Below, piece by piece: positions 2,323 to 48,921 of a stretch of 64,000 nt of DNA. Under the pieces are notes generated by a model, which had not been told where the DNA came from, ran no database searches, and saw nothing but the letters and a program-made list of their open reading frames with translations. The number at the start of each line of letters is the position of its first letter. Positions within the stretch are counted from its first letter, which is position 1. Origin of the DNA: a virus; the UHGV virus genome UHGV-0305822, one strand, 5' to 3'. The position numbers were made by a program, and so were the translations under genes.

Positions 2323-2345
2323 CAGATATATATTACCTAGGTGAG
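2323..2345 (+). promoter_or_regulatory. candidate phage promoter element, copy A (cAGATATATATTACCTAGGTGAG)
   Basis: AT-rich element containing TATATTAC, about 45 nt upstream of ATG 2392; related copies at 59801, 20449, 10961 and 29567. Confidence 0.4.
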
Positions 2346-2809: not shown

Positions 2810-3271
2810 ATGAAAACCTTTATCACATTCTTAATAACCATTTTAACTTTCGGCCTCAATAGCGCACACGCCGCTATCAACAGCTGGGAACAAATACAAA
2901 ACCCTGGCCAGGCAGTTTACGAAATTGAAGACACCGCCGGAAACGGACTGTCTATCAACTGTGACACAGAAACTGCGAATCGCAAATTTTACGGTCGCAT
3001 GGTTTGGTATTACGGTGAACCCGTAGGTGCAACTAACGCTGAAGATAACACGATGGATATTGTCGTAAACGGCAAAACCTATAACATCCCTACCGTGGAC
3101 GGTAGTGACAAAGCAGAACACGCTTGGGTTGCTTTCGTTAATGCTATCGGTAATGCCAAAACTTTCAGTGTGAGTATCAATGGTAACGATGCCGCTAACT
3201 TTACCGTAGAAGGCGAACGTCTGTCTGAAACTTTCTTCCAAAACTGTGGACACACCCGTCCTAACAAATAA
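2810..3271 (+). CDS. small secreted protein (predicted signal peptide)
   Basis: N-terminus MKTFITFLITILTFGLNSAHA-AIN looks like a Sec signal with AxA cleavage site; 2 Cys in mature part; SD gaaggag. Confidence 0.7.
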   Translation: MKTFITFLITILTFGLNSAHAAINSWEQIQNPGQAVYEIEDTAGNGLSINCDTETANRKFYGRMVWYYGEPVGATNAEDNTMDIVVNGKTYNIPTVDGSDKAEHAWVAFVNAIGNAKTFSVSINGNDAANFTVEGERLSETFFQNCGHTRPNK

Positions 3272-3293
3272 TTATTAGTCTTTTTTAGAGTGC

Positions 3294-3686
3294 GTGAAAA
3301 TGAATATCAGAACTATACTTTATACCATCATTATTTTCTGTGCGGTCGGAATTACTGGCACTTATGCTTTCGGTGATTCGGATGTCCGCTATTACGAACC
3401 GGCTCCTGACTCACCGATTATCAACCCGGATGAGACGCCTACGTTAATGCGCAGTTTCGGTAAACTACAAGTTTATCGTTTAGTGCGTGGTGAAACGTGT
3501 ACGGGATTACTCATTGCTGACACCCGTGCACAAGTCTACCAACGTCTGACGGATATCGCCTGCGAACAACCAAAGGTAATGTCGGTTAGCATCCATCCGC
3601 TATCAGTTGGTAACTATACCGCTGTGGACTTCTTTCACAACGCCGAATTAATCGGACGCGTTACCTTAAATCGTCCTGCCGAATAA
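3294..3686 (+). CDS. small secreted or membrane-anchored protein
   Basis: hydrophobic N-terminus ILYTIIIFCAVGITGTYAFG; start could be GTG 3294 or ATG 3300. Confidence 0.6.
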   Translation: MKMNIRTILYTIIIFCAVGITGTYAFGDSDVRYYEPAPDSPIINPDETPTLMRSFGKLQVYRLVRGETCTGLLIADTRAQVYQRLTDIACEQPKVMSVSIHPLSVGNYTAVDFFHNAELIGRVTLNRPAE

Positions 3687-3704
3687 TCTAAAGGAGTAGT
3701 TACA

Positions 3705-4190
3705 ATGAAACGTTTACACACTCTGATGTTCTTTCTGGTTTTCTTGTTTATCGGTGTCACACCAAGTGTAGATGCGGCCTCCGTAGACGAATTGCTTACC
3801 TGTGATGGAAACGCTTGGGAAGGTCAGCCAAATGCGTGCCCAAACATCAACGACTTGTACGATACCGATAAGTCGTTTAAAGCCGTTGTTGATAAAACAT
3901 TAGACCCTGTGGGACTGGATGGTATGTTCGGCTCTAAAGGTTACATGGATGGCCCTGGCGGTAACATGTATCCGGTAAACATCAACAACAAAATCTGGAT
4001 TGAAAGTGGCGGTTGTAAAGCTAACGCTTGTGGTTGGGAATACATCGTAACGCTATACAACCCACACACCAAGAAACTCGTCGGTTATTACTACAACATC
4101 GACCCCGGTTATCTGATCTGGTTCGGTGATATCGGTGTTGCCGAATTCGCTTACCTGGTTAAGAAATACGTAGAACAATCTAAATACTAA
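3705..4190 (+). CDS. small secreted Cys-containing protein
   Basis: signal-like N-terminus MKRLHTLMFFLVFLFIGVTPSVDA; 6 Cys; SD taaaggag. Confidence 0.7.
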   Translation: MKRLHTLMFFLVFLFIGVTPSVDAASVDELLTCDGNAWEGQPNACPNINDLYDTDKSFKAVVDKTLDPVGLDGMFGSKGYMDGPGGNMYPVNINNKIWIESGGCKANACGWEYIVTLYNPHTKKLVGYYYNIDPGYLIWFGDIGVAEFAYLVKKYVEQSKY

Positions 4191-4201
4191 GGACTTTTAT
4201 C

Positions 4202-4612
4202 ATGAAAACTATCATCAATACTCTTCTCATTGCAATGGCTGTTCTGTTCTCTGTCAACGCTACAGCAAAAACAATACAGTTGCCAGACAATATTAAGTAC
4301 GTCAATAGCACCGATGATTTCTATTGTACGGAAATTGACGGCTTGTACTGCCAGGCGAAGAGTCTGTTTAAATACAAAGGTAGCAGATACGTATTCATCG
4401 TTGAGCAGGGTGGTGCCTGGTGTTACGACAGCCCAATGTCCGTACTCAACCTCGAAACGTGGAAGGCCCAACGTCTCGAATACAACGACAAACGTCTGTG
4501 CTCTGGTAATAACAAACCATTCTTCGAAGTCGTAGATGGTGTGCCAATGGTAGGGATATTAGACACTTCGGAAAAACCTATCGTTGTAGCTATGGATAAA
4601 CTTAAAATTTAA
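4202..4612 (+). CDS. small secreted Cys-containing protein
   Basis: signal-like N-terminus MKTIINTLLIAMAVLFSVNATA; 4 Cys. Confidence 0.7.
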   Translation: MKTIINTLLIAMAVLFSVNATAKTIQLPDNIKYVNSTDDFYCTEIDGLYCQAKSLFKYKGSRYVFIVEQGGAWCYDSPMSVLNLETWKAQRLEYNDKRLCSGNNKPFFEVVDGVPMVGILDTSEKPIVVAMDKLKI

Positions 4613-4622
4613 GGAGTAACTC

Positions 4623-5012
4623 ATGCGTCTCGTCTGCGTTTTAGCATTCTTCTTCTCCCTGAGTGTAGCAGCATCTACTCAAGTTAACGATTTACTGCTA
4701 ACCCCAAACAACAATACCGATTACCAGTACAATCCTCCGGGGTTTGAAGTTTGTGAAGTCGGTGAAACAATCTGCCAAGAAGTCGGCGCAGACGGGCGCT
4801 ATATTCTGGTAAAAGCTGATGGTGGCACAATGTGTCCCGCAGGTTATTACTTTCTGCTCGATTCCGTCGCAAGAGAGGTTCTTCCTATCACCACGAAAAC
4901 GTGCGACCCTACCGTTGTCTTAACTCTCGCTAAAAGCAAATCTCGCGACCGTTACCTGATCGTTATCGAAGAACGGGGCAAGATGGCTGGTGCTATCGAA
5001 TTAGATCATTGA
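4623..5012 (+). CDS. small secreted Cys-containing protein
   Basis: signal-like N-terminus MRLVCVLAFFFSLSVAAS; SD taaggag. Confidence 0.7.
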   Translation: MRLVCVLAFFFSLSVAASTQVNDLLLTPNNNTDYQYNPPGFEVCEVGETICQEVGADGRYILVKADGGTMCPAGYYFLLDSVAREVLPITTKTCDPTVVLTLAKSKSRDRYLIVIEERGKMAGAIELDH

Positions 5013-5022
5013 GTGTAGTCTT

Positions 5023-5049
5023 GGCCCCGATACGTTCGGGGTCCTTTTT
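5023..5049 (+). terminator. intrinsic terminator
   Basis: ggccccgatacgttcggggtcc hairpin followed by ttttt. Confidence 0.65.
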
Positions 5050-5557: not shown

Positions 5558-5591
5558 AGCCCGGCCCCGTTTACTCGGGGCTTCTTTTTTT
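5558..5591 (+). terminator. intrinsic terminator
   Basis: gccccgtttactcggggc hairpin followed by ttcttttttt. Confidence 0.6.
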
Positions 5592-5611: not shown

Positions 5612-6220
5612 ATGAACGAAATTACATTAGTTCGTTTTCTTGAAGCGATGCAAAATGCAGAGCGCTTTTCGCATACGCCTTTATTCATTGACTTAATGGA
5701 AGAAGAAGTAGAGGGCTTCCTGGCATACCCACGCTTACGGGAATATTTTAAACGCAAAACACCGACTGCTTACGAAAAGTTGGTTTACGCGCTTGAAAAC
5801 AGTACAACACTGTTAACGTCGCCTTTTAAGGCGTTGGAGGCTTTAGACCCGGCTGGTACCACAAGTATCCCACAACGTGTTGTGTTCTACTATATCGACC
5901 ACGATCGAATTAAAGCCGATGTTGTTAACTGGATCTCTGAAAACGCAGTTCCTGAAACACGCACTTTTAATCTCTGTCCCGTAGAAGAAGGGTGGAAGGT
6001 CGGTAGCCACTATTCTTACCCGTACCAATCCATTAAATCGCCGTTTTTATACCCGGTTTATCTGGATGATGTTACACCTGGAAATTGTATCCCGGTAACA
6101 AATCTGATCTGTACATTGACAATGGAAGTCTTAGCCACAAAGGCGGGACAGGTTTGGGTAGAAAACACGAAGAACGTCGATTATTGGACTTCAATGGGTT
6201 ATCACCTGTACACCAAATAA
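5612..6220 (+). CDS. hypothetical protein
   Basis: 202-aa ORF; SD aaaggaaag. Confidence 0.65.
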   Translation: MNEITLVRFLEAMQNAERFSHTPLFIDLMEEEVEGFLAYPRLREYFKRKTPTAYEKLVYALENSTTLLTSPFKALEALDPAGTTSIPQRVVFYYIDHDRIKADVVNWISENAVPETRTFNLCPVEEGWKVGSHYSYPYQSIKSPFLYPVYLDDVTPGNCIPVTNLICTLTMEVLATKAGQVWVENTKNVDYWTSMGYHLYTK

Positions 6221-6225
6221 CGTTT

Positions 6226-6268
6226 GGGAGAACCTTCGGGTTCTCCCTTTCTTTATTTTTTTCTTTTT
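6226..6268 (+). terminator. intrinsic terminator
   Basis: gggagaaccttcgggttctccc hairpin followed by a T-rich run. Confidence 0.65.
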
Positions 6269-6298
6269 ACACCACACTCCGTCTTTATGGAGGTGGGT

Positions 6299-8803
6299 AT
6301 GCTAAAAGTTGAACGCATTATACTCAAAGGTTTTACGGGGATGGGGTTACATGAAATTGAAACCTTCGATTTCACTATCCAGTCTCCAACAACAATTATC
6401 CTGGGTGGGAACGGCTGCGGGAAAACCAGTCTACTGTCTGTGTTCTTACCCTTAGCACCGGCTAAAACCGAATTTAGGGACGGCGGTTCTTACACAAACT
6501 ACTGTTTAGTTGGCGATCAACGCTATCGATTCAAAGTTGCCCGTAAAGGCAACTCTTTGGTTTGTGATATTGAGAACTTGACCACGGGGACAAAGATCGT
6601 CGAGCAAGGTAATGCGAAAGTCTACAACTCCCGTGTTGAAGAAATCACGGGTATTACGAAAGAGATTAAAGAACTATTAAATGGTGAGGTGTTGTTAACC
6701 GATGCGGGAACCGAATTACGCCGCAAATGGTTTTACCGTTTAAGTACCTCTGACCTCACTTACGCGTTAGGGTTTTATCAGCGTTTACGTAAAAACCTTA
6801 CTGCCTTAAATGGGGGTATTGAAATCACCAGCCGCAAGATCGCCGAATTACGGACGCGTGTTATTGAGAACGAGGAAGAACGGCAGCAGTTAGCGACGAG
6901 ATTAAAAGGTTTGGAATCGGATTTACGTGAACTGAACCGAGAAATCGAACAGTTGCCAGGATTAAATCGTGCCGTCACCATCGAAACAATCCAAGCGTTA
7001 TTAAACAGCTTGGGCCCAACCATCGACGCAATATTACAACATCGTGGTGGCCTGCCTACTGATGAACAGATACTGACCGCGCGACAAAACGAAGCTACGG
7101 CCCGCGAAGCTGTCGTGTCTACTGAAACAGAGGTATCGATGTTGAATAAAGACTTGTCGTTATTAATGGATGAGTCGACACGACAAGACTACCTGATGCG
7201 GAATCACGAAGGTCTCAAGAATACGCTGGCACGTTTACGTGAGTTACTTACCAAATGGGACACCGAACATCTCTTTCCGGGTCTATTTAACGACAACATC
7301 AATTTAGACCAACTTCGTGCGGCTACAGATGCGCGTGTTTGGGGGCAACGGTTGGGAACAACACTAGACGCAATTCATTCAACCGAAAAACTTAACGTTT
7401 TGGAAGAACGACTTCTGGTGATGGATCAAAAAACCGCAGGGATGCGGGATAGACTCCAGCGAGTGGAGAACGTTTTACAGAATTTAAATCACGAACGTAA
7501 TCACTACTTAGAAACAGCGGAAGTGGATTGCCCGCAGTGTCGGTTTAAGTTTCGGCCCGGTGTTACGCGTTCTTTACCTGAACTTGAGTCTTCGATTCGC
7601 GGACAACAACAGCAGCGCACGGAACTGCAAACACAGTTAGAGGCCCTATTACGCGATCGTGTTGAATTAGAATCTGATGTAACTTATATGCGGCAGGTTC
7701 GTGAGATTGTACTGACGTATTCAAAGGACCCGGTATTGAGCATGTTCTTTAAGCGTTTGCAAGAACGTAACGTTTTCACAGAATCACGCGAACAGTTCGG
7801 GAGTCTATGCGCAGCGTTTGACAGTGAGTTGTACTCTGCTATTGAGTACCATGAAACCCGACAACGGTTAGTGAAGGCGGAAAAAGAATGGCAGGATGCC
7901 GTAGCGGCCGTTGGTAACGTCGATGGTGCTTTACAACAGAAAATCGCCTTCCAACAGTCACGATTAGGTAAAGCCACAGAAATGCTCTCAATGCGTCGTA
8001 GAGAGCACGAACTGGCTAACACGACACTTACCTATCTGGTGAATGTTAAACGTGCTGTAGATGATTTCAGTGCGTTATTCGAACGGTTAGAGAGTGATGT
8101 TAAGGTTACGTTGACAAATACGGTCGTCGAGGAACTCTTACGTGCACGAGAAGGGAAGCTGGATGCTTTTACAACCGCACGCGAACGTTATCGTCAGATG
8201 GAAAATGAATTGAATCAGCTCAACAGTTTGGAACGCGAACTTGCTGACTTACAAGCCCAGCAGTTCAATAACAAACTGATGATTCAAGCCTTCTCGCCAG
8301 AAAAGGGTGTACTTAGAAAGTATTTTTACAACGCTATCGTTAGAATCACAGAGTTAATGACGCGTTATATCGAACAAGTCTGGACGTACCCCATGCGCGT
8401 TATGCCTTGTGACCTCACTGACGGCGATTTGGATTATACTTTTCCTGTCCAGCTAAAAACGCATCCTGAGCCTGTTCCTGACGTGCGTAAAGGGTCTAAG
8501 GCGCAGCGTGCGATATTTAATCTGATGTTCAGGCTGACCGCGTACAAAGCGCTGAAGTTGCATCAGTTTCCGTTGCTTTTGGATGAGCCTTCGGAAGGCA
8601 TGGATGAGGAGCACCGTAACAACCTGGTCGGCTTTATTAAAACGTTAGCAAACTCGGGAGAATTTTCTCAACTGTTGGTAGTCTCCCACGAAGCCGAGGT
8701 TCATTCTAAACTTAATGAAGCATCGTACTGTGTCATCGAACCGGAAGGGGTGACATTGCCTGCGGTGTATAACGAAGGAGTAAAAATTGTTTATGCAAAC
8801 TGA
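6299..8803 (+). CDS. SbcC/Rad50-like recombination ATPase (SMC-like)
   Basis: Walker A GGNGCGKTS at 6404..6430; long coiled-coil-like middle; CPQC zinc-hook-like motif at 7529..7540; Walker B LLLDEPSEGMD and VVSHEAE near C-terminus. Start moved to ATG 6299 (MLKVERI) after ggaggt, because the track start at 6224 sits inside the upstream terminator. Confidence 0.7.
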   Translation: MLKVERIILKGFTGMGLHEIETFDFTIQSPTTIILGGNGCGKTSLLSVFLPLAPAKTEFRDGGSYTNYCLVGDQRYRFKVARKGNSLVCDIENLTTGTKIVEQGNAKVYNSRVEEITGITKEIKELLNGEVLLTDAGTELRRKWFYRLSTSDLTYALGFYQRLRKNLTALNGGIEITSRKIAELRTRVIENEEERQQLATRLKGLESDLRELNREIEQLPGLNRAVTIETIQALLNSLGPTIDAILQHRGGLPTDEQILTARQNEATAREAVVSTETEVSMLNKDLSLLMDESTRQDYLMRNHEGLKNTLARLRELLTKWDTEHLFPGLFNDNINLDQLRAATDARVWGQRLGTTLDAIHSTEKLNVLEERLLVMDQKTAGMRDRLQRVENVLQNLNHERNHYLETAEVDCPQCRFKFRPGVTRSLPELESSIRGQQQQRTELQTQLEALLRDRVELESDVTYMRQVREIVLTYSKDPVLSMFFKRLQERNVFTESREQFGSLCAAFDSELYSAIEYHETRQRLVKAEKEWQDAVAAVGNVDGALQQKIAFQQSRLGKATEMLSMRRREHELANTTLTYLVNVKRAVDDFSALFERLESDVKVTLTNTVVEELLRAREGKLDAFTTARERYRQMENELNQLNSLERELADLQAQQFNNKLMIQAFSPEKGVLRKYFYNAIVRITELMTRYIEQVWTYPMRVMPCDLTDGDLDYTFPVQLKTHPEPVPDVRKGSKAQRAIFNLMFRLTAYKALKLHQFPLLLDEPSEGMDEEHRNNLVGFIKTLANSGEFSQLLVVSHEAEVHSKLNEASYCVIEPEGVTLPAVYNEGVKIVYAN

Positions 8804-8972
8804 TTGGTTCCGTCGTATTGTGGATGCGGCAGGGTTTGGCTTCATGTCCATTCTAGCGGTTCTTTATGTCATGTTTTGTGTGGTGATGATTTTATGGGTA
8901 GTTTCATCTTATCTGATTAAACTATCGTGGGGTTCAATTTGGCGTCAACGCGAATGCGAATGGCGGAATTAG
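8793..8972 (+). CDS. small membrane protein
   Basis: 59 aa, hydrophobic helix FGFMSILAVLYVMFCVVMILWVV; SD aaggag before ATG 8793. Confidence 0.45.
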   Translation: MQTDWFRRIVDAAGFGFMSILAVLYVMFCVVMILWVVSSYLIKLSWGSIWRQRECEWRN

Positions 8973-8982
8973 GAGAGGGAAT

Positions 8983-9081
8983 ATGGTTGTAGGGGTTCTG
9001 TTAACACTTGGCTCGTTGTGGTTAATTGGTAAAGGTTTAAACTGGCTGATTAAACGTCACCGTTGGGCGTTCGAAGATTAA
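8983..9081 (+). CDS. small membrane peptide (32 aa), putative
   Basis: SD aggagaggg then ATG; MVVGVLLTLGSLWLIGKGLNWLIKRHRWAFED; too short for the ORF track. Confidence 0.3.
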   Translation: MVVGVLLTLGSLWLIGKGLNWLIKRHRWAFED

Positions 9082-9138
9082 CCACCCAAATAATCCAGAA
9101 GATACCCTCCGGTGTGAGGGTATTGACAGGAGCAGAAA

Positions 9139-9267
9139 ATGACCACGATAAACGCTACGAATGTAGCGATATCCGCACTATACGACGCGGAACTTTCATG
9201 GGGTGGATTAATGATCACCACAGCCATATTAGCCGCTGCGGCTTTCGTCATCGCGCGTTGGTTTTAA
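9139..9267 (+). CDS. small membrane peptide (42 aa), putative
   Basis: SD caggagcag then ATG; C-terminal hydrophobic helix LMITTAILAAAAFVIARWF; preferred over the overlapping 9063..9317 track ORF. Confidence 0.3.
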   Translation: MTTINATNVAISALYDAELSWGGLMITTAILAAAAFVIARWF

Positions 9268-9298
9268 TTTTACTTTTTTGCGTCTCTAAGGTTTGCAA

Positions 9299-9742
9299 AT
9301 GGAAATTTATTTGTTGAACGCATCTTCTAAAGTCGGTGAACGACAAGCTGCCGATTTACTCAAACTACACTACCGTTACTTGGACCACCAGGCTACATTA
9401 CTGAAAATCAAAACGTCGGTGCCGAAGTTAAATGCGCGACAGCTGATCGAAGGTAACTGCATAGTTCTGGTGTATCAGGATGATGTCGCGGTAGGATACT
9501 GTAGTTATCGGAATCGTAACGGTTCACTTAAGATACGTTCGGTATACGTGCTCCCAGACTATCGTCAACGGGGTGTAATGAAAGAGATTTTCAAAGCAAT
9601 TGCAGCTGATGAAGTTTTCGGCGAGATTGTTACTGGCATGTATGCGAAATGTAAAGAAGCAAAAGAGTATTTCATCCGACGCGGCTATCAAGCGGTTTAC
9701 TCACACGATCGTGAGTGGGTCGATTTTAGCAAAACATTCTAA
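9299..9742 (+). CDS. GNAT-family N-acetyltransferase
   Basis: GNAT motif-A-like segment VYVLPDYRQRGVMKEIFKAI; typical size of about 147 aa. Confidence 0.55.
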   Translation: MEIYLLNASSKVGERQAADLLKLHYRYLDHQATLLKIKTSVPKLNARQLIEGNCIVLVYQDDVAVGYCSYRNRNGSLKIRSVYVLPDYRQRGVMKEIFKAIAADEVFGEIVTGMYAKCKEAKEYFIRRGYQAVYSHDREWVDFSKTF

Positions 9743-9808
9743 AAACAATAAAGCTCTCTTGGCGTACCTCACTATGAGTGTGAGAAATTTACGTCAGGAG
9801 AGCTAATT

Positions 9809-10054
9809 ATGTTAAAATCGTACGGAGTGGGTGGTTTGGATACGAGTATTTGTTGGAAAGAATACGAACGTGCGAAAGCGTTCTTACAGCATCCCAATGT
9901 GGGGACGATAGGTAAGGTCTGTTTCGGCAAACCTTCACTGACGGCTTGTATCCAAGGGGCTTTAGGGACGTTGCCACCCGAATCACATTTCGAGCCTGAG
10001 GAGAATATGAATGTTCACAGAGAACCCATCAATTTACGGCATACCGTTGAATGA
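9809..10054 (+). CDS. hypothetical protein
   Basis: 81-aa ORF; SD caggagagc. Confidence 0.45.
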   Translation: MLKSYGVGGLDTSICWKEYERAKAFLQHPNVGTIGKVCFGKPSLTACIQGALGTLPPESHFEPEENMNVHREPINLRHTVE

Positions 10055-10379
10055 AATTGATATTCTGCAAATTTGTTATCAATGTGGTGACTTCGGTAAG
10101 ACGCAGGTAACGCCGTTAGTTAAGCTTTTAGGTTACTTGCCTGAAATCGAGTTGCCTTTTGTTAAACCCAGTTTAGTTCGTCGCGCATCGTGTCGTGAAG
10201 CTTATTTGCTCTGGAAACACAATATTTCAGTAGAGAATGTCTGGGACCGTATGAACGATCATCAGTTCCGTGAGCAGGTCGTCCACACGCTTAACTTGTC
10301 ACTGACTATGCAGCGCCTGGGCTTACAACACGAAGGTTTAGAAGCGGCGGTCAAGCAATGGATTACGAAAAATCGATAA
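10011..10379 (+). CDS. hypothetical protein
   Basis: 122-aa ORF; SD gaggag; overlaps the 3' end of the previous ORF in another frame. Confidence 0.5.
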   Translation: MFTENPSIYGIPLNEIDILQICYQCGDFGKTQVTPLVKLLGYLPEIELPFVKPSLVRRASCREAYLLWKHNISVENVWDRMNDHQFREQVVHTLNLSLTMQRLGLQHEGLEAAVKQWITKNR

Positions 10380-10403
10380 TGGGTAAAACATATATCGCTA
10401 TAC

Positions 10404-10964
10404 TTGTCGAGCTATCAATCGGCGGTACACGTTTTAATACTACACATCAACTCCGGGCGTTTCGTTATGTTAACGGTACGTAAAGAATCTGAAATTGGTA
10501 ACGATCTTTTTAATGCGCCCGAAGACTATAAAGTCGTTACCATTAACTGCGTAGGAGCGATGGGTCGCGGTATTGCACTCGCGTGTCGTGAACGCTACCC
10601 CAACCTTTATCAGGATTATCGTAAGCGGTGTCGTGAAGACGAAATTAAGATTGGAAGCGTTTACGTTTACTCTGACGAAAAGTGTATCTTGCTCCCCACG
10701 AAAACACATTGGCGTTTAAAATCCCAGGTTTCTTATGTTACTGCGGGCATTACCGCATTAGCAGACTGTGTTGAGGATCTGGATACCAGCGTTGCTATCC
10801 CTCCGTTGGGAATGGCAAATGGGTGGTTAGATTCCTGGGAAAGACAAGAAATCTTTTTGTGGCTTTACAAAAAACTTGAACCGAGGAGGCAGCGCTACAC
10901 GTTATACTTACCTGATAAGCTGTACCAAGAAGCAGAGTCATTAATTCCAAACTCTTTTAAATAG
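10404..10964 (+). CDS. macro-domain-like protein (possible ADP-ribose binding or processing); start uncertain (TTG 10404 or ATG 10467)
   Basis: segment VVTINCVGAMGRGIALACRERYP resembles the macro-domain loop N-x(6)-GGGV-x(2)-AI; later VAIPPLGMANGW resembles the second macro Gly loop; by-eye comparison only. Confidence 0.35.
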   Translation: MSSYQSAVHVLILHINSGRFVMLTVRKESEIGNDLFNAPEDYKVVTINCVGAMGRGIALACRERYPNLYQDYRKRCREDEIKIGSVYVYSDEKCILLPTKTHWRLKSQVSYVTAGITALADCVEDLDTSVAIPPLGMANGWLDSWERQEIFLWLYKKLEPRRQRYTLYLPDKLYQEAESLIPNSFK

Positions 10965-10984
10965 ATATTATCATTAGGGCACAC
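10961..10984 (+). promoter_or_regulatory. candidate phage promoter element, copy D (ATAGATATTATCATTAGGGCACAC)
   Basis: related to the AGATAtATATTAcC element; upstream of the SLT gene. Confidence 0.3.
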
Positions 10985-11064
10985 AACAAAGGAGTATTAG
11001 CTGTCCGCGCCGTCATTTCGTCTTACGGAATACGGAAATGTATAAATCCAACTGGAGAAACAAA

Positions 11065-11763
11065 ATGTTTCGTATCTTCTTTCTTTTACTGGTAACACTT
11101 TTCGCGTTTAACGCACAGGCGTCAACGTCAACGCCACATTCTAAGCATCAGCGTGAGTTTGCACAAATCCAACATCGGTTCGAAAAAGTCAGCCCGTTAA
11201 TTGTGGAAATCTCACGAAAGCAGGGCGTTGATCCCAAGCTGATGATTACGCTGATTTATCGTGAATCGCGTTTTGATCCCAAGGCTTACAACAAAAGCTC
11301 ACGAGCGCACAGCCTGGTACAAATGCTTCCAAGTACCAAGCGTAATCTGCTAAAGCTTTATGGAAAAGAATTAGGTCTTAGTCAGAACGCCGATTTGTAT
11401 AATCCGCGTAACGCTGTTTTGCTGGCTACCGCGTATGTTAAACATCTTGAGAAGGGGTTAACCAAACGACTCAAACGCAAGCCCACCATGGCTGAAATTG
11501 CGTTAGCTTACCACTGGGGTGAAAGTGGCGCTCACACGCGAATCAAAAGCAAATCTCGAGCAGCACAACGAGAAATGGCAGGCTTTATGAAAGACGCCGC
11601 GTTCTATAGCGCGAAAATCGATGTGCCTGTTGTTGTGGGCTCGGCCCCACGTCAGCTTGCGTTTGCGAAGAAAACACCACGTCAGATTCAACTGGCGGAA
11701 GTTAGTAGAATTTGGGATACGATAAACATGAGTTTTCCAATCAATAGAGGAGTTACCCTTTGA
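11065..11763 (+). CDS. secreted soluble lytic transglycosylase (SLT domain)
   Basis: signal-like MFRIFFLLLVTLFAFNAQA; SLT motifs ...LIYRESRFDPKAYNKSSRAHSLVQMLPST...; ATG 11065 after ggagaaac (the track ORF starts at 11038). Confidence 0.7.
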   Translation: MFRIFFLLLVTLFAFNAQASTSTPHSKHQREFAQIQHRFEKVSPLIVEISRKQGVDPKLMITLIYRESRFDPKAYNKSSRAHSLVQMLPSTKRNLLKLYGKELGLSQNADLYNPRNAVLLATAYVKHLEKGLTKRLKRKPTMAEIALAYHWGESGAHTRIKSKSRAAQREMAGFMKDAAFYSAKIDVPVVVGSAPRQLAFAKKTPRQIQLAEVSRIWDTINMSFPINRGVTL

Positions 11764-12335: not shown

Positions 12336-12815
12336 ATGATAAAATTCATTTGGCGTTATCCAACGCGTTTTTGGTTTGTGGTACTTGAACTGTGTATGGT
12401 TCTTGTAGCGGTTACTTTTGTCGAAGCACCCGCCTCGCAGTTGGCCATTTTCTGCCTTTTCGTGACTGTCCCTGTATGGGTGATTGCGAAGGTTATTAAG
12501 TTCGTCATGGTGTGTTGGGCGAATTATACCTGTCCGTATAAGCCTAAACAAATCATGAAATGGCTGATGTATATTGAAGAACGTTTACCGGCGCAACATA
12601 AATTACTGGGCTGGTCGTCAATGTTGGATATTGCGCTAGAAACCAATGCAAAGTTCCCCGGTGCGAAAAACCCGTATTTGTTGATGGCGGTAATTGTTGC
12701 ACAACAAAAACTGGCAGGTGACCGTTGGTTGCCAGAAGAAGCGAAAGCGTATATCCGTAAACATCCAAAAGCTTTTTACTCGGTAGGACAATGGCGTAAC
12801 TTGCCTTTATTTTAA
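12336..12815 (+). CDS. integral membrane protein
   Basis: multiple hydrophobic segments (FWFVVLELCMVLVAVTF, LAIFCLFVTVPVWVIAKVI); SD taaaggagc. Confidence 0.65.
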   Translation: MIKFIWRYPTRFWFVVLELCMVLVAVTFVEAPASQLAIFCLFVTVPVWVIAKVIKFVMVCWANYTCPYKPKQIMKWLMYIEERLPAQHKLLGWSSMLDIALETNAKFPGAKNPYLLMAVIVAQQKLAGDRWLPEEAKAYIRKHPKAFYSVGQWRNLPLF

Positions 12816-13810: not shown

Positions 13811-13846
13811 TCCCCTACTCCTCCGGGAGTAGGGTTAATTCTTTTT
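13811..13846 (+). terminator. intrinsic terminator
   Basis: cccctactcctccgggagtaggg hairpin followed by a T-run. Confidence 0.65.
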
Positions 13847-14417: not shown

Positions 14418-14428
14418 AATAAAAGCTA

Positions 14429-14460
14429 CCCTACTCCTTCGGGAGTAGGGTAATCTTTTT
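14429..14460. terminator. bidirectional intrinsic terminator between convergent genes
   Basis: ccctactccttcgggagtaggg hairpin flanked by an A-run upstream and a T-run downstream. Confidence 0.6.
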
Positions 14461-22792: not shown

Positions 22793-22796
22793 TACA

Positions 22797-24702: not shown

Positions 24703-24705
24703 ATA

Positions 24706-41796: not shown

Positions 41797-44700
41797 TTAC
41801 GCTGATTTACGACTAACGTCGAGTTGCGGCACGGGTTGAGTTATTGACACGTTACGTGACGCCGAACCCGGAGCGGTTGACGCCGGGTTAGCCGGACCGT
41901 TTTGCATAGCCTGTGGCCGCTGACGAAGAATTGTTACAATCTCTTTCAGATAGCCTGCAGACTCTTTTGCAACCGCCAGCTGTTGTACACTGATCGGATC
42001 ACCACTGTTCACTGTGGAACCGGTCTGAGCATCGGAAGTCACCGTTGGTGCAGGACGGGCCGATTTCTCCATCTGCTGTCTAGCACCCTCTTTTACTTTA
42101 GCAACCTCTTCTTCGGCCAGGCCGTCAGCACGTGCATTTTGACCCACCGTCTCTACAACAACTGACGCATCACTCGGCGTGACATCGCCACCAGGACTCG
42201 GCACAGCCGGACCACCACCCGTTGCAGCTTTAATATCTTCAGCACCCATCGCGCCTTTGTCTGCTAAAGCGGAGTCACGATTCGCTTCGTTCGCGGCTGG
42301 CAGGTTATCTGCCGGGCCTGTGATAGACGGATCGTTAGCAGCGCCTGCAGCGATAGCCGGGGAAGACGGCATTGGCGTTACGCCTGTCGTCAAGTCTTTC
42401 AGCGATGCCTGGTTAGCCGCGATCGCGTTTGTTCCTACGGCACCAATCTTACCACCCATGATGTTGAGCACTTCATCCAAACTACGCAATTTTCCATTCT
42501 TGTAGAAAATTGTGCTGTTTGCCGCGATTTGATCGGCCGACGCACCACGCGACGATGGGCCGTTCGGATCACGCTTCCATTCTTGCAGGAATTTCTTACC
42601 GCCACCTTGTCCTAAGAAGTGGTAGAGGTAAACAGCTGCACCTGGAGGATCGATACCACCTAAATCCTTTCTGGCTTTCTCGATATTATCACGAATATGA
42701 CGGACGCCAAGCAGAGCATTCGCCCACGGGTCATACTGGTTAGTTTGCGGGATACCATAACGTCTCGCATAAGCTTTCATCTGCGCACCCCAGGTATCGT
42801 TGATGAACTGGAACAAGCCAGCCGCAGAACTTCCTTTAGCTTTGATACCGTATCTAAGCCCAGATTCTGCTTGTGCCATTCCCAGTGCTAACGCTGGAGG
42901 AACACCCATCATCTTCGCTACGTCTGTAATCAGTGCTGCAACCGCATTCAAGTTAGGCTTCAATCCGTCACCCAACGTTGAAATTGGATACTTAGCCGCT
43001 AACGTTTTATAGTCACCGTCTTGCATATCGCCAAGTTTCACGCCGAAGTTACCGGTAGTAAATGCAGCGTAATTCTTAGCTCCCATCTGACCGTAAGCAC
43101 CGGCCAAATCGTTTGGTGTGCCGTAATTCCCACCGTCGTTTGCCGCTGGTTGCAATAGGTCACGATAAGAGGAGGAGGTGTTCATCTGTGGTCGAGACGG
43201 TTGCTCCTTCTCATCGTCGGTCAAGAACATCTGAGTCGCGCGATCTTTTCGCTGCCAGTTCACACGGAAACCCGCAGAAGGCGTAGCACGCAGCGTTTTA
43301 CGTACTGCCAAATCAGCTTCCTTAGACAGTTCTTTCAGGTTCTCTAACTCCGTTGCAACTGAACCGGCGTCGGTGTTAGCGTCTCCCCCTAACGGGTTAA
43401 ACGGTACCTCCCACACTGACTGACGAATACCCCCTTTCAGGTTGTATGCACCACGCATCATCAGTGCGATTTCATACAAGAACCCACCCGTAACGCGTAG
43501 GTCCATCGGATCGGCAGCAGGGACATAACGTTTCACCCCAACCACGTACGTCATGAAGACAGGTAAGAAGCGGTTATAGAACCAGTTCTTGTACCGATCT
43601 TCTTTTGGCCCACCAATGGCGTCAGGCGCAATCACCGCAATCGCACGTTTCCAGTCGCCTTTATACGTACAGCTTTTCACATCGGTGTCTTGCAACACTT
43701 GACGTTCCAAGAGCGTATATAGGTTACGGGTTGTTTGAGTAATGCTCACCGCACCATAAGCTTTCAACCTTACGGACTCCAAATCACGGAGATCGGTTTC
43801 TTTAGGTAAACTTCTCCAGTCGACTTGAACCTGAACTTGTTCGGTGCCGTCTTCCCAACCTTCAACTTTCGCAACTTCTTTGTTGCGTTCCGCATCCGCT
43901 TGAGCCAACGCTTGGGTCGATTCTGCCACAGAAGCAACTTTGTGTCCTTCGGCCACACCGCCTGTAGCATTTACATCCTTACGTTTTTCATCACGACGCA
44001 TGTTAATCGAACGAAGCACGCGTTCTTGCGCTTCAACGACTTCTTCGCCTGACAAAAACTCGGCCGGGGTAAACGTTACGAAATCCCACGCTTTAGAGAA
44101 CCAACCTTGGTTAACCTTGCGGGGATCTTCTAATGCACGGAATGCAGGCGCATCTTTCGACATCTTCATTTTGTTGAAGATATTCAACATGTCTGCCTTC
44201 GACACTTTCGCAGGATTACCGACATCTGCTAACGCGATATCATTATCCATGGATTTCAGTGCTGTAATCCAACGTAAATAGATCGGCACAAAACGTTGTA
44301 GCATAAACGCACTAAACGCCAGCATTTCGCCTTTGTCTTCTACGTTAGTACCAAACCCTTCGGCCAGTTTCTTCACGTCGTCACCGGACAAACCACGCAA
44401 CTGTGCTTGACCATTCTCTGTATAAGAGATATACGGTTTCAAGTTGTCTTCTAAATAACGTGCTTTTGCGCCATCATCGGAAGACCATTCGTCGTGATCT
44501 CTAAATCCGTACTGTGCCAATCGCATGTTATCCAGATACTGGGCATTCACACGGGTTGCAGTTTTATACGCAAACCAAGACAACGCAGCGCCTGCAGCAA
44601 CCAAACCGATAATCGGCCAGCCAACCGCAGTTACCACTGCAGATGCTGCCGTCGCGACAGCACTCACCGCAGGAACAGCCAAACGGGTCACAGCAAACTT

Positions 44701-47700
44701 ACCAACGTTCCACAACGCTTTACCTGCAAACCCAACCGGCTTAAAGATTCCCCATTTTGCGACTTTACCTAAGATTGAACCCACTGTGCCTAAAATACTC
44801 ACAATCGGCCCTACCAACGGCAGTCCTTTAAGGAAATCCATTACCCCACGTTTACCGCCTTTCTTCTCAGCCTCTTTCTTAGCCTTTTCCTCTTCCTTAG
44901 AGCGACGACGGCGTCGGAAGAACTGGAAGTAATCGCGTTTTTCATCACTGGCAGGTGGCTTGTTACGTTGACCGAACTTACTGAACATGGTTCTTAACAA
45001 ACCATCCGAAGCACCTGCTTTTTCCGCAGAATCACGCATGGTATTAAACCACGACATTTCCTGAAGATTAACCATTCGGTTCAGGCGTTCCAGTAAAGCC
45101 GACCCAACGCTACGGGCTTTCTGTTTCCCTTTATTAATCACACGTCCAGCGCTATCCGTTACGGTGTCTAAGTCTTCTTTTGCCGCATCGATGATACGTG
45201 TTTTAGACACCTTGCCTCTTGCGTAGATGTGTTGACGATAAAACTCAGCAACGTCGTCATCGCGTCCTGCTAAACGACTCTCCATTCGATAACGTGTTCC
45301 AATGTCGTAACGCGGATCACGGAAGGTATCGACCATATCGCTTGCACGACCACGGAAACGGTCAAACCAATCACGTGCTGCACCACCCCAACGAGAAAGA
45401 CGACCACCTACCGCACTACGGTAACGGGACATTCTGTCACGCATCCGACCACGCCAATCCCGGAACCCTTGAAAATGTTCACGGAATCCTTCGCGTATGT
45501 CCTTAGCACGTTGGAATAATCCTTTAACTGAACTGGCCCCCGTATTCCGCTCCATCTGTTCTGTCCAGGTGTCATCTTCAGGTTCACCTGGCAATCTCCG
45601 GTTAAGGAGTTTGTAGATACGGATTAGGATGTGGTTAGTTTTACGGCCATTCGACCACGAGAACACACTAAACCCACCACCAGAGCCCCCTTCCTTACGG
45701 TTCTGCCACCAACGTGTCAACGGATTATCAGAAGCCAACTCTTTGAGCTTCTCAAACCCACGTTTTGCATTGTTCCACAGACGAGCTGGCATTCCCGTTA
45801 CACGGGAAATCATGCTTTGTAAACGGGTTTTCTCTGCGCCCTCTGGAACCTCATTTAACCACTCGCGTGCTTTCTCGAACAACGAAGCCGCTTTAGGCGA
45901 AATGAAACCCAGAAGTTTCTTCGGTAAAGTCACAGCTTTGTTTACCGCCGTTCCTGCCTTCCCAGAAATGTACTGGAAAAGCGCTTGAACTTTACCGCCT
46001 TTGTAGAAACGCAGTTTACCTGCGGCAGCCAAATCAGCAGCAGCTAAGATTAAATTACCCGCCTCGTCGACGATGTCACGTCCCAGTTTAATATCGTCGA
46101 GAGTTTTAAGTTGAATCAGCTTCTCAGTTTTCGGGTCAGCCTGGTAATATTCCCCAGCTTCTAAACGACTTCCTTGTAATACGACGTTACCACGTTCATC
46201 GTAGATGTCGCGAACACCTAAAACGCCTTTACCGAAAGCTACAGCAGAATTCCAACCGGTCGATAATGTACCGGTTACTAACCCTTTCAGTCGGCTAAAT
46301 ACGCCGGGACCTTCGGAGGAACCGCCTGAGAATTTCCCACGAATAAAACCACCTAATGCTTGTAGGCGATCTTTCCCACGTAGGAACAGATTCTTACCAA
46401 ACCGTCCTACACCTGAACCGGTATCCCAAAGCACCCCAGCCCAGCGACGTAACAAACCTGTCTCGCCTAGTACAATACGTTTGCGCTTACGACGACGTTT
46501 ACGACCCGATTCACTCGAACTTTCAGGTTCGTCACCGTCATCACGGCTACCGCCTAAACTGGCCAGAAGAATACCTTCCTCATCCATGTTCTTAACGTGT
46601 TTGAGGATATCTTGCACTGTGCTAGATTCAGGCTGTTTACGTACCGCATCAATCAAACGATCGAATTGCTGCTCCAGTCCAGCGTTCGTATCTGGACGGC
46701 TGCTTAAGAGCTCAACAAAGTTGGTGGATTTCTCTCCATAAAGTACAGCAGCGAGTTGACGGGCGCTTAAACCGCGACCGCGACCACCTTTTCCACCACC
46801 ACGTACGTTAGACAGTTCTTTGTCTTCAAAGCTCGGCTCTGCACCTGCACCCATCCGACGCAAGTAATCACCCAACGCAGAACCATTTTGCAGCTTACGT
46901 TGAATCTCTTGCTCACGGGTTAACGAACGACCAGAGCGGGTCTTACCCATCGACAGGTCGTTAAATAGCGTATAGGGATCGTTAATGTCCTTATCGACTT
47001 CGAAAATGTCGTTCTTCGCATCGTATTTAAAAATGCCGGAGTCGCGAAGTGCGTTCTCGCCGTAAATCACAGACGCAGCATCAACCGTGTCTTGACGTGC
47101 ACGAATCGTTGACTGGATAGCGGCGATTTTGTTTGAAATCGCGTTGCTCAGTTCATGGTGACCGCCAACCAGTTCCGCAGAACGGGCTTCTAAAACACCC
47201 TGAATCGCTTCCACAGCGTTTGCGTTCATGTACCGATACATGTGCATCGGGTCTTTCAATAAAGACCCTACATCGAACGCTTTCCCTTCTGAGGCACGAG
47301 ACTCGATGTAGTCCGCTAACGCTTGACGTGTTTTCCTATCGAGCGTTTTATCTTTATCGATAAAGTCGACAGTGTCGTTGATGTACGTCTGTAAACGTTT
47401 GCGCTGATCGTCATTAGCAACGGCCTTACGTACACGATTACCAATGACTTTACGATCCACCATACCGCGCGTGGTCAGGTCATAAACCTGATCGTGGTGT
47501 TCGCCATACCCACGACGAATAGATTTGTTAATCTCGGACAGTAACGTCGGAATAACTTCGGTGATACTAAGGTAAGCTTTACGATCGAATTTCGCCGCGG
47601 CAGAAAGAGATTCCGCAGAACGATCGTCTAATGCTAAGGTTTCGCGACGTAGCGGGTTAACTAGCCCCAATTCGTGCATTAGTCGAAACAGATCAGCTAA

Positions 47701-48921
47701 CGGACCGCTTGTTTCTCCCGCTATTGCCGAGTTAGAAATAGACGACAGATTTCCAAAGCCATACTTCGCCAACTGTAGGCGTTTCATGACTTCTGGGTTT
47801 TTCTCTAACTCGCCACGGGTCCAGTTCTGAAGACGTTCGATCTGTGGTTGTAAGAGACGTTTTGCTAACCAACCACCTGCAAAACCTGCCGCTTTATTAC
47901 GCGAGTTTGTGTTACGACGGTCAGGAGACAACGATGAGCTGTCCGACATGTCAAAGTCATCTTCCTGAGCCATCCCTAGAACTTGTTCTAGAATCCCACG
48001 ACCATCACTAAAGATGTTCGAGATTTTCTTCTTCGCGTTTTCGCGAATCTGACCAATGAAATTGTCTGCGTAGTGTAAGGGGTTCATCCACTCCGCAGCT
48101 TTACGTTTTACATTAGCCCAACGAATTTCAGAAAACTCTTCCTTCGCGTAGTCCGGTAGTGCTGTGTTCTTAACGATGGCTTCTAATGCCGGGGTGTTGC
48201 GTGCAAACTCGTCTTGTTTGAGTTTCGCAATATCCTGCAAAGCGAACAATGTCCGATATTGCAGCTCTAACTGCTTACGCTGAACATTCAACAACACGCC
48301 ACGACTTAAGCTAGTCGTTAAGTTGACGTCTTTCGCAATACCGATTACGGTCTGGAACAGCGCGTCGGACTTCATGTCCTTAATCGTGTCGCGCAAGCGG
48401 TCTTCAACCATCCCCTCTTGCATCTCACGTTGCTGGTCCGCTGTTTGCGGTGCACCTGAGAACACGCTGTCCAGCTCACGATCCATCATCGCCTGTTTAG
48501 GATCGTAATTCCCATAGTCGATTTGATCGTTACGTGCCCACTTGTCGATTTTCCGTGTTACGGATTCCGGTAAATACCGTTTCAGTGTTGGGCCTAACTG
48601 TCTCGCTTGCATCTTAACGACGCGAGACGTCTTTTCAATCTCGTCTTTCGTATGGGCCAGAATGTCTTGACCTGCGGCTTTAACGTTTTGATAGCCTTCG
48701 TAGGCTTCTGCCGCAGGTTTAGGCATCCCTTTTAAAATAACCTGATCACGTTTGTTTTCGGGCCAGATAGTCGACAACGCCGACTTACGGGCAGCACGAA
48801 ATGTGTCCATGACCGGGTTACGCGATTGGTCTTGTTGACGAGGGGGCTCATCAAAATCGTCCCAGTCGTCCATGTTATCAAGATCGATTTCATCGAAATC
48901 ATCTTTACCTTTTTTAGCCAT
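41797..48921 (-). CDS. giant virion-type protein (2374 aa) with C-terminal-region SLT lytic transglycosylase domain
   Basis: SLT motifs ...LGMAQAESGLRYG...AAGLFQFINDTWG... encoded at about 42560..42930; internal hydrophobic cluster; poly-basic tracts (SGRKRRRKRKR, FRRRRRSKEEEKAKKEAEKKGGKRG); size and domain order as I recall for phiKZ gp181-type proteins. Confidence 0.8.
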   Translation of the reverse strand: MAKKGKDDFDEIDLDNMDDWDDFDEPPRQQDQSRNPVMDTFRAARKSALSTIWPENKRDQVILKGMPKPAAEAYEGYQNVKAAGQDILAHTKDEIEKTSRVVKMQARQLGPTLKRYLPESVTRKIDKWARNDQIDYGNYDPKQAMMDRELDSVFSGAPQTADQQREMQEGMVEDRLRDTIKDMKSDALFQTVIGIAKDVNLTTSLSRGVLLNVQRKQLELQYRTLFALQDIAKLKQDEFARNTPALEAIVKNTALPDYAKEEFSEIRWANVKRKAAEWMNPLHYADNFIGQIRENAKKKISNIFSDGRGILEQVLGMAQEDDFDMSDSSSLSPDRRNTNSRNKAAGFAGGWLAKRLLQPQIERLQNWTRGELEKNPEVMKRLQLAKYGFGNLSSISNSAIAGETSGPLADLFRLMHELGLVNPLRRETLALDDRSAESLSAAAKFDRKAYLSITEVIPTLLSEINKSIRRGYGEHHDQVYDLTTRGMVDRKVIGNRVRKAVANDDQRKRLQTYINDTVDFIDKDKTLDRKTRQALADYIESRASEGKAFDVGSLLKDPMHMYRYMNANAVEAIQGVLEARSAELVGGHHELSNAISNKIAAIQSTIRARQDTVDAASVIYGENALRDSGIFKYDAKNDIFEVDKDINDPYTLFNDLSMGKTRSGRSLTREQEIQRKLQNGSALGDYLRRMGAGAEPSFEDKELSNVRGGGKGGRGRGLSARQLAAVLYGEKSTNFVELLSSRPDTNAGLEQQFDRLIDAVRKQPESSTVQDILKHVKNMDEEGILLASLGGSRDDGDEPESSSESGRKRRRKRKRIVLGETGLLRRWAGVLWDTGSGVGRFGKNLFLRGKDRLQALGGFIRGKFSGGSSEGPGVFSRLKGLVTGTLSTGWNSAVAFGKGVLGVRDIYDERGNVVLQGSRLEAGEYYQADPKTEKLIQLKTLDDIKLGRDIVDEAGNLILAAADLAAAGKLRFYKGGKVQALFQYISGKAGTAVNKAVTLPKKLLGFISPKAASLFEKAREWLNEVPEGAEKTRLQSMISRVTGMPARLWNNAKRGFEKLKELASDNPLTRWWQNRKEGGSGGGFSVFSWSNGRKTNHILIRIYKLLNRRLPGEPEDDTWTEQMERNTGASSVKGLFQRAKDIREGFREHFQGFRDWRGRMRDRMSRYRSAVGGRLSRWGGAARDWFDRFRGRASDMVDTFRDPRYDIGTRYRMESRLAGRDDDVAEFYRQHIYARGKVSKTRIIDAAKEDLDTVTDSAGRVINKGKQKARSVGSALLERLNRMVNLQEMSWFNTMRDSAEKAGASDGLLRTMFSKFGQRNKPPASDEKRDYFQFFRRRRRSKEEEKAKKEAEKKGGKRGVMDFLKGLPLVGPIVSILGTVGSILGKVAKWGIFKPVGFAGKALWNVGKFAVTRLAVPAVSAVATAASAVVTAVGWPIIGLVAAGAALSWFAYKTATRVNAQYLDNMRLAQYGFRDHDEWSSDDGAKARYLEDNLKPYISYTENGQAQLRGLSGDDVKKLAEGFGTNVEDKGEMLAFSAFMLQRFVPIYLRWITALKSMDNDIALADVGNPAKVSKADMLNIFNKMKMSKDAPAFRALEDPRKVNQGWFSKAWDFVTFTPAEFLSGEEVVEAQERVLRSINMRRDEKRKDVNATGGVAEGHKVASVAESTQALAQADAERNKEVAKVEGWEDGTEQVQVQVDWRSLPKETDLRDLESVRLKAYGAVSITQTTRNLYTLLERQVLQDTDVKSCTYKGDWKRAIAVIAPDAIGGPKEDRYKNWFYNRFLPVFMTYVVGVKRYVPAADPMDLRVTGGFLYEIALMMRGAYNLKGGIRQSVWEVPFNPLGGDANTDAGSVATELENLKELSKEADLAVRKTLRATPSAGFRVNWQRKDRATQMFLTDDEKEQPSRPQMNTSSSYRDLLQPAANDGGNYGTPNDLAGAYGQMGAKNYAAFTTGNFGVKLGDMQDGDYKTLAAKYPISTLGDGLKPNLNAVAALITDVAKMMGVPPALALGMAQAESGLRYGIKAKGSSAAGLFQFINDTWGAQMKAYARRYGIPQTNQYDPWANALLGVRHIRDNIEKARKDLGGIDPPGAAVYLYHFLGQGGGKKFLQEWKRDPNGPSSRGASADQIAANSTIFYKNGKLRSLDEVLNIMGGKIGAVGTNAIAANQASLKDLTTGVTPMPSSPAIAAGAANDPSITGPADNLPAANEANRDSALADKGAMGAEDIKAATGGGPAVPSPGGDVTPSDASVVVETVGQNARADGLAEEEVAKVKEGARQQMEKSARPAPTVTSDAQTGSTVNSGDPISVQQLAVAKESAGYLKEIVTILRQRPQAMQNGPANPASTAPGSASRNVSITQPVPQLDVSRKSA

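Follow-up and report, generated by a model that had tools for sequence, protein, structure and literature searches.

No class of phage gene is missed by annotation more often than those for small membrane proteins. The superinfection-exclusion proteins Imm and Sp of T4, the bacterial regulators AcrZ, MgrB, MgtS and CydX, and the type I toxins TisB and Hok are 30-90 amino acids (aa) in length and possess one or two helices, and proteins of the Imm/Sp, AcrZ and TisB types bind larger membrane proteins or perturb the membrane, evolve fast and often escape annotation. Phage 21 S21 68 and T7 gp17.5 are small holins of the class II or pinholin type. The only characterised lysis cassette in the phiKZ family is gp141-144, where holin, regulator and spanins directly adjoin the endolysin, and the class III holin gp142, which has a large cytoplasmic domain, is contiguous with the spanins and endolysin (PMC12894885). 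Another small membrane protein, SPN3US gp187, has also been remarked on in print; Thomas et al. 2016 suggested, from T4 gp47.1 and the membrane-associated gp46/47, that it might tether the phage nuclease to the membrane (PMC5105663). Here we describe P1, P2 and P3, three small genes in UHGV virus genome UHGV-0305822, of which a stretch of 64,000 nucleotides (nt), referred to as the window, was analysed. P1, the counterpart of gp187, and its two neighbours very probably encode genuine membrane peptides, and appear to be what remains of a larger module of small genes that follows the SbcC-like gene in one branch of the phiKZ-like jumbo phages.

Gene models of P1, P2 and P3

All three open reading frames (ORFs) are on the same strand, between a gene for an SbcC/Rad50-like ATPase with an SMC_N domain (6299..8803, +; 834 aa), which is a homologue of SPN3US gp186 (58% aa identity) and phiKZ gp165, and a GNAT acetyltransferase gene (9299..9742, +) that is the conserved neighbour downstream. 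P1 occupies 8787/8793..8972 (+; 61 or 59 aa, depending on the start codon), P2 8983..9081 (+; 32 aa) and P3 9139..9267 (+; 42 aa), in agreement with the coordinates and the lengths of 59, 32 and 42 aa given in a preliminary description of this DNA. The Shine-Dalgarno (SD) sequence that was assigned to each ORF can be read directly: AAGGAG at 8775-8780 for P1, AGGAG at 8971-8975 for P2 (7 nt from the ATG at 8983), and AGGAG at 9128-9132 for P3 (6 nt from the ATG at 9139). Each product also has the one strongly hydrophobic helix that had been claimed for it, with best 15-aa Kyte-Doolittle window means of 3.1, 2.3 and 2.5 for P1, P2 and P3. In P1 an uncharged core (residues 14-44) is followed by a basic and aromatic C-terminal tail ending in RQRECEWRN, in P2 an N-terminal hydrophobic segment precedes an amphipathic basic tail, GKGLNWLIKRHRWAFED, and in P3 an acidic or polar N-terminal stretch of 18-20 aa leads into a C-terminal helix ending in RWF.

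P1 had been placed right after the SbcC-like gene, and the adjacency holds, but P1 overlaps the last 17 nt of that gene instead of following it: the SbcC stop codon (TGA, 8801-8803) is downstream of the P1 start, and the P1 SD is embedded in its coding sequence, at the conserved NEGV codons. The overlap also bears on the choice of start codon. The ATG at 8793 is replaced by ACG in two relatives with 87% SbcC identity (L004 and L005), whereas the TTG at 8787, 6 nt past the AAGGAG, is kept in both and is the annotated start of phiEaH2 gp111. TTG 8787 is therefore more likely than ATG 8793 to be the start, and P1 is probably a protein of 61 aa (8787..8972). Gene callers run on public contigs with near-identical DNA (L021-L025) called P1 and missed P2 and P3.

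Conservation and selection

Both strands of the 64 kilobases (kb) were filtered for ORFs that encode 28-70 aa, are preceded at a distance of 5-17 nt by a 5-nt SD match and include a hydrophobic window scoring 2.2 or more; P1, P2 and P3 passed and nothing else did, and the cluster is therefore not what chance gives. The three frames are intact in all of eight near-identical genomes, and the 31 variable sites that these genomes show within P1-P3 fall mostly at codon position 3 (18 sites), with position 1 accounting for 10 and position 2 for 3. In the comparison with L004, the ratio of nonsynonymous to synonymous substitution (dN/dS; Nei-Gojobori) is 0.33 for P1, 0.38 for P2 and 0.18 for P3, at amino acid identities to the L004 relatives of 53-64%, as against 87% for SbcC. 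Judged from these substitutions, P1-P3 are under purifying selection. Furthermore, a competing frame of 84 aa that runs over P3 (9063..9317) is broken in both L004 and L005.

Homologous small ORFs occupy the same place in SPN3US, SPLA3, Asesino, phiEaH2, Huxley and four further IMG/VR genomes, and are present in every relative of the SPN3US branch examined. Close relatives and three other genera thus keep both position and sequence, so that a lack of conserved frames, named in the preliminary description as the observation that would speak against these genes, is not what is found. Conservation and purifying selection together uphold the proposal of three separate small genes for single-helix membrane peptides, and we regard P1-P3 as very probably genuine.

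The phage and its relatives

A blastn search with positions 6000-11000 for distant matches found DNA only ~68% identical, in the Erwinia phages Asesino, Stratton and phiEaH2 (Erskinevirus) and in Salmonella SPN3US-like phages (Seoulvirus); megablast of 8700-9400 against phage records gave no match. Also present in the window are multisubunit RNA polymerase beta genes that are split, a gene for a recombinase of the UvsX type and one for a tail protein of 2374 aa that has a transglycosylase domain, and these genes, together with the distant matches, assign the phage to the SPN3US branch of the phiKZ-like jumbo phages. IMG/VR contains near-identical genomes (L003 and L009, SbcC 99% identical at the amino acid level) in addition to the more distant L004 and L005. 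The exact P1 protein is recorded on 188 contigs of up to 226 kb, from assemblies some of which are labelled Shigella, E. coli or Salmonella. Phages of this type are common in public data and occur in assemblies whose labels are Shigella flexneri, E. coli and Salmonella, one example being GCA_015624795.1, with a contig of 222,715 base pairs (bp); a search of complete E. coli genomes and PLSDB plasmids found no match to the phage.

A five-gene module downstream of SbcC

In the relatives, up to five tightly packed small genes follow SbcC, here called A to E. Gene A (P1 type; SPN3US gp187, phrog_16515) encodes 49-66 aa with one helix, and gene B (P2 type; phrog_13448, unannotated in the SPN3US record) encodes 32-46 aa with an N-terminal hydrophobic segment and a basic tail. 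Gene C (SPN3US gp188, phrog_18173) encodes 65-75 aa with two transmembrane (TM) segments, gene D (P3 type; SPN3US gp189, phrog_29196) encodes 42-43 aa with a C-terminal helix, and gene E, unannotated in SPN3US, encodes 34-35 aa ending in LTQGWF. In SPN3US there are overlaps among all five and with the SbcC stop codon, and genes C, D and E have been gained or lost from genus to genus. P1-P3 correspond to three of the five, with genes C and E missing from the window phage, and a search across the window for remnants of gene C, gene E or SPN3US gp200 gave chance-level matches only. By this comparison, the window lineage has lost genes C and E, and P1-P3 are what remains of the module.

The assignment of P1 to phrog_16515 extends over its full length (hmmscan E = 1.2e-4) and is accompanied by blastp matches to two members of that family, Asesino gp208 (6e-7) and SPN3US gp187 (3e-6). 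P1 shares the layout of the gp187 family as well, with a start that overlaps the 3' end of the SbcC/SMC-like gene by 17 nt and a single hydrophobic helix, as in the relatives. P2 matches phrog_13448 over residues 1-31 (hmmscan E = 6.6e-14) and finds Stratton and phiEaH2 by tblastn (6e-5); its SPN3US counterpart is an unannotated ORF between gp187 and gp188. P3 has no match among PHROG profiles at E <= 0.1, while SPN3US gp189 matches phrog_29196 at 8e-33. The two proteins are 42% identical over 43 aa by blastp (E = 9e-6, in a small search space) and are equal in position and architecture, and we accept them as homologous on the pairwise match and synteny. A tblastn search of phage records with P3 gave no match because the peptide is too short for a database of 2.3 Gb (gigabases), and the P3 comparison was made locally against fetched syntenic loci. 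Pairwise E-values of P1-P3 against their SPN3US and Huxley counterparts range from 1e-6 to 1e-9. The idea that P3 and the 35-aa E peptides are paralogues was rejected (hhalign probability 1%).

Pfam gave no match at E <= 0.1 and NCBIfam no relevant match at E <= 1 for P1, P2 or P3, and neither had anything informative for gene C or E of the relatives. The families phrog_16515, phrog_13448 and phrog_29196 are all uncharacterised, so that membership gives no mechanism. On present evidence P1-P3 are an ordinary accessory module, composed of members of already catalogued but uncharacterised phage families. The reference records have gaps of their own at this locus: SPN3US JN641803 lacks the P2-like and the 35-aa E-like ORFs in 171400-172100, and in SPLA3 it is the P1-, P3- and E-like ORFs that are missing.

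Profile searches of 5.8 billion proteins recovered 32 clusters for P1, 17 for P2 and 10 for P3, and an exhaustive HMMER scan of 1.84 billion representatives recovered 9 for P1. All matches to the three families are on contigs of up to ~250 kb and are named 'hypothetical', and the P1 profile recovers only the SPN3US-branch clade. No small TM genes follow the SbcC homologue in phiKZ, RAY, PCH45 or Vibrio phage pVp-JHP1101, and those that follow it in Phobos (Derbicusvirus) are unrelated. Judged from this distribution, the module is specific to SPN3US/Seoulvirus, Erskinevirus, Machinavirus and the related branch of phiKZ-like jumbo phages, and, as other SbcC homologues lack it, it is an invention of the branch and not part of a conserved SbcC function.

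Translational coupling, hairpins and the transcription block

The position of the P1 start and SD within the coding sequence of the SbcC-like gene is repeated one gene further on, where the P2 SD (8971-8975) overlaps the P1 stop codon (TAG, 8970-8972). This is the classic layout of coupled genes, and the translation of P1 and P2 is therefore probably coupled. P3 is set off by a spacer of 57 nt, which takes the place of gene C and folds at -16.7 kcal/mol (z = -3.0). The hairpin that had been noted between the second and third ORFs, at about 9102..9123, is real and spans 9101..9124, with 9101-9109 pairing with 9116-9124 in a stem of 9 bp around a loop of 6 nt; it lacks a T-tract. A hairpin that differs in sequence is found at the same spot in L004 and L005, where TGTTTTAC follows it. 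Rfam had no match in 8600-9500, and the hairpin is thus not a described RNA family; it may be a weak, T-less terminator-like element or one that stabilises the transcript, and would set P3 apart from SbcC, P1 and P2.

Upstream, a strong hairpin with a T-run that resembles an intrinsic terminator (6226..6247, +) is found just ahead of the SbcC-like gene and forms the 5' boundary of a block whose 3' boundary is the next canonical hairpin and T-run (13813..13834, +). Terminators close each of the three upstream genes (5023-5043, 5563-5582 and 6226-6247), and no canonical + strand terminators were found between 6247 and 13813. The genes from SbcC through that for a 311-aa protein therefore form one terminator-bounded block, comprising SbcC, P1-P3, GNAT, a macro-domain protein, an SLT transglycosylase, and proteins of 169 aa, 159 aa (with two TM segments) and 311 aa; internal promoters for phage polymerases could also be present. 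A second hairpin is predicted at 6272-6296, in which the SbcC SD, GGAGGTGG, pairs with CCACACTCC, and the 78-nt region folds at -31.1 kcal/mol (z = -5.3). By this folding model, the second hairpin may act as a translational throttle on SbcC and, by way of coupling, on P1 and P2, and expression of the whole gene string would then stay low.

Other canonical hairpins with T-runs are found in intergenic regions at 14427-14452, ~2262-2300, ~22795-22830, ~24705-24750 and ~62000-62040. The tails of the terminators often contain TTAC or TTTAC, and the phage RNA polymerases appear to use intrinsic terminators of the bacterial type. Matches to sigma-70-like promoters are at or below the shuffle expectation. 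The sequence TATATATTAC, which resembles the AT-rich early-promoter core reported for phiKZ, occurs once, at 2328..2337, just past a terminator and ahead of genes for secreted proteins, with none near P1-P3. Recurrent 8-mers of the form ACGTTTA[AC] were rejected as a promoter motif, being codon-driven and inside genes.

Predicted topology

Lysine and arginine are concentrated C-terminal to the uncharged core in all family members. The P1 family has 4-7 such residues on the C-flank and 0-4 on the N-flank, the P2 family 3-5 and 0-1, and the P3 family 0-1 and 0, with an N-flank that is acidic. By the positive-inside rule, this distribution predicts that P1-P3 insert N-out/C-in. AlphaFold2, supplied with the family alignment, modelled P1 as one continuous helix over residues 3-58 at a mean predicted local distance difference test score (pLDDT) of 82, with no helical hairpin.

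Possible functions

As a class of mechanism, the reading that we tentatively favour, at somewhat less than even probability, is that P1-P3 are accessory modulators of the host inner membrane. They would be micro-proteins that cross the host cytoplasmic membrane once and are translated, through coupling, at the low level that SbcC dictates, and would bind host membrane proteins or each other, or alter membrane function, for instance to exclude a superinfecting phage or to inhibit or retune the host envelope machinery. They would be neither core parts of DNA repair nor the principal holin of the phage. Fast evolution, gene gain and loss, clade restriction, size class and coupling to a non-structural gene support this, as does an envelope-directed neighbourhood, with five genes for secreted proteins upstream and the Sec-exported SLT transglycosylase and the 2-TM protein downstream.

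Several points weigh against assigning P1-P3 to this class. 'Accessory membrane modulator' is a broad category and was reached partly by exclusion, and rapid evolution and patchy gene content fit holins and antiholins too. Coupling to SbcC that persists across several genera could mean a functional link and not mere gene packing. With regard to topology, the orientation is drawn solely from the positive-inside rule, and the uncharged stretch of P2 is only 15-17 residues long, such that P2 may be interfacial rather than bilayer-spanning. The preliminary description had listed holins or antiholins, depolarisers and inhibitors of host membrane proteins as possible roles; none of these is singled out, and the holin is weakened by the family search and by gene position.

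Control of lysis is an unlikely but better-supported alternative than the others, whereby P1-P3 would act as holin, antiholin or pinholin-type partners that collapse or time the membrane potential and so activate the Sec-exported SLT lytic transglycosylase (11038..11763, +; 241 aa), a 'putative endolysin' in SPN3US. Its Sec signal peptide (FNAQA|S, within MFRIFFLLLVTLFAFNAQA|S) looks cleavable, and is present in every member of the clade and conserved in Vibrio phage pVp-JHP1101. By precedent, exported endolysins depend on depolarisation by a small holin, as with phage 21 S21 and its signal-anchor-release (SAR) endolysin and with fOg44 Lys44. No canonical + strand terminator separates SbcC and P1-P3 from the SLT gene, and gene C of the relatives, within the module itself, has the architecture of a class II holin (65-75 aa, with two TM segments between a basic N-terminus and a C-terminus that is charged). 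P1, at ~60 aa with one TM segment and a charged C-terminal tail, fits the holin size range. The trait of a TM domain with a charged tail is found in P1-P3 in the form of one hydrophobic core each, with basic C-flanks in P1 and P2 and RWF only in P3. However, no Pfam or NCBIfam holin family matches P1-P3, gene C is absent from the window phage with no remnant in the window, and P2 (32 aa) and P3 (42 aa) are, to our knowledge, smaller than any characterised holin.

Gene position argues against a role in lysis as well. P1-P3 are not adjacent to the SLT gene, which starts 1.8 kb downstream with the GNAT, macro-domain and other genes between, and they are unlike the contiguous phiKZ cassette (PMC12894885). 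A better-placed holin candidate is the 159-aa 2-TM protein (12336..12815, +), which is encoded two genes past the SLT gene, as is its positional equivalent in SPN3US, gp200, of 86 aa with two TM segments and a basic tail. No similarity in sequence was detected between the 159-aa protein and gp200, and Pfam and NCBIfam had nothing informative for the former. The SLT enzyme and the 2-TM protein form a candidate lysis cassette unlike the characterised gp141-144 cassette of phiKZ. Vibrio phage pVp-JHP1101 has a secreted SLT yet no peptide module after SbcC, and because of this the secreted SLT was rejected as a marker of the module. A holin coupled to a gene of DNA metabolism would be unusually timed. 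No lipobox or spanin-like neighbour of P1-P3 was found, and a role for the peptides themselves as spanins was rejected, as they are 32-61 aa long with at most ~20 extramembrane residues and no lipobox motif.

A second alternative, which we consider doubtful, is that one or more of the peptides, most of all P1, use their short cytoplasmic tails to fix the phage SbcC/SbcD (Rad50/Mre11-like) nuclease to the cytoplasmic membrane or to regulate it there. In Seoulvirus, Erskinevirus, Machinavirus and the IMG/VR relatives the stop codon of SbcC is overlapped by a P1-type gene, and in Phobos by a different small TM ORF; T4 has an analogous layout, with gene 47.1, for a predicted membrane protein of 46 aa, overlapping the start of gene 47, the SbcD homologue. 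The idea has moreover already been raised for SPN3US gp187 (PMC5105663). Against it, the SbcC homologues of phiKZ, RAY, PCH45 and the Vibrio phage stand without an adjacent small TM gene, so that the nuclease does not generally need a peptide partner. The peptides have no sequence similarity to T4 gp47.1 and evolve far faster than SbcC, and the whole region is tightly syntenic, which makes adjacency alone weak evidence. In nucleus-forming phages, furthermore, DNA transactions are expected inside the protein-shelled compartment, away from the membrane. By analogy with T4, the peptide operon might even be a membrane platform, in which P1, with P2 and P3, keeps SbcCD at the cytoplasmic membrane outside the phage nucleus, which is similarly improbable. 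If it were so, SbcCD might there, for example, break down host DNA or act on phage DNA as it enters or leaves, the platform would have arisen convergently with that of T4 gp47.1 and gp46/47, and a role would be assigned for the first time to small membrane proteins in a nucleus-forming phage.

Least probable by far is that P1-P3 are chance ORFs in an intergenic spacer or leader in which the hairpin alone is functional, a reading suggested by their very short length and by the failure of gene finders to call P2 and P3 on public contigs with the same DNA, but effectively refuted by the comparative data, in that the frames are kept over large divergence with dN/dS <0.4 and a third-position bias, every start has an SD, synteny is clade-wide and the rival 84-aa frame is broken in L004 and L005.

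Other genes in the neighbourhood

Between the gene for a 122-aa protein and the macro-domain gene is a further small ORF (10358..10483, 34/41 aa, containing MGKTYIAILVELSIGGTRF), which several public contigs list as a gene and of which L004/L005 have a counterpart. Upstream of the block, 2810..5012 (+) contains five consecutive genes for proteins of 153, 130, 161, 136 and 129 aa, all of which start with a signal peptide of the Sec type that has a plausible AxA-like cleavage site. Several of the five are in related uncharacterised PHROGs (phrog_9424, phrog_8968 and phrog_5248), and from their signal peptides they look like a battery of small periplasmic proteins. The 2374-aa tail protein (41797..48921, -) has a transglycosylase domain at residues ~1992-2246 that is related to the PHROG of the 241-aa SLT protein. 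It may, by analogy with phiKZ gp181, a virion-borne enzyme that pierces the cell wall, have the same function.

Comparison with known systems

The likeness of P1-P3 to T4 gp47.1 consists in the coupling of a gene for a tiny hydrophobic protein to a gene for a phage nuclease of the Rad50/Mre11 type, a parallel that has been drawn before (PMC5105663). T4 47.1 precedes the SbcD homologue, whereas P1-P3 follow SbcC, and gp47.1 has two hydrophobic segments. The best blastp match between gp47.1 and P1-P3, in a search of 11 subjects, covers 17 hydrophobic residues with E = 0.1, which amounts to no similarity.

With small holins (the class II or pinholin proteins S21 68 and T7 gp17.5, and the class III phiKZ gp142), P1-P3 share a presumed location as small inner-membrane proteins with charged tails, in a phage that also encodes an exported or soluble lytic transglycosylase. 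Unlike them, P1-P3 match no holin family, are encoded apart from the lytic enzyme, and have one TM segment each in 32-61 aa; nothing like the phiKZ gp142 cassette is seen at this locus. The resemblance to T4 Imm and Sp, to the bacterial regulators AcrZ, MgrB, MgtS and CydX, and to TisB and Hok is one of size and architecture only, with no homology.

The closest comparison is with the phages of the SPN3US branch, and it is here that the locus is most informative. The gene models are now fixed, including the start of P1, and a clade-specific five-gene module has been defined that evolves under selection and is probably coupled to the SbcC-like gene, which is essential. The start of P1 is a useful by-product, as are the P2-like and E-like genes left unannotated in reference genomes; P2 and P3 are uncalled on public contigs, and the SPN3US reference record is without two of its five module genes. 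The module is a compact and testable set of targets in the tractable SPN3US model, and bears on the timing of lysis with a secreted transglycosylase, on superinfection exclusion and on membrane-bound DNA repair in nucleus-forming phages. Unlike SPN3US, the window lineage is without the 2-TM gene of the gp188 type and the 35-aa gene ending in LTQGWF, and has the 57-nt hairpin spacer instead. With SPN3US gp187, gp189 and the P2-like ORF, with Asesino gp208 and with Huxley gp198 and gp199, P1-P3 share homology, gene order, strand, a position linked to SbcC and the single helix.

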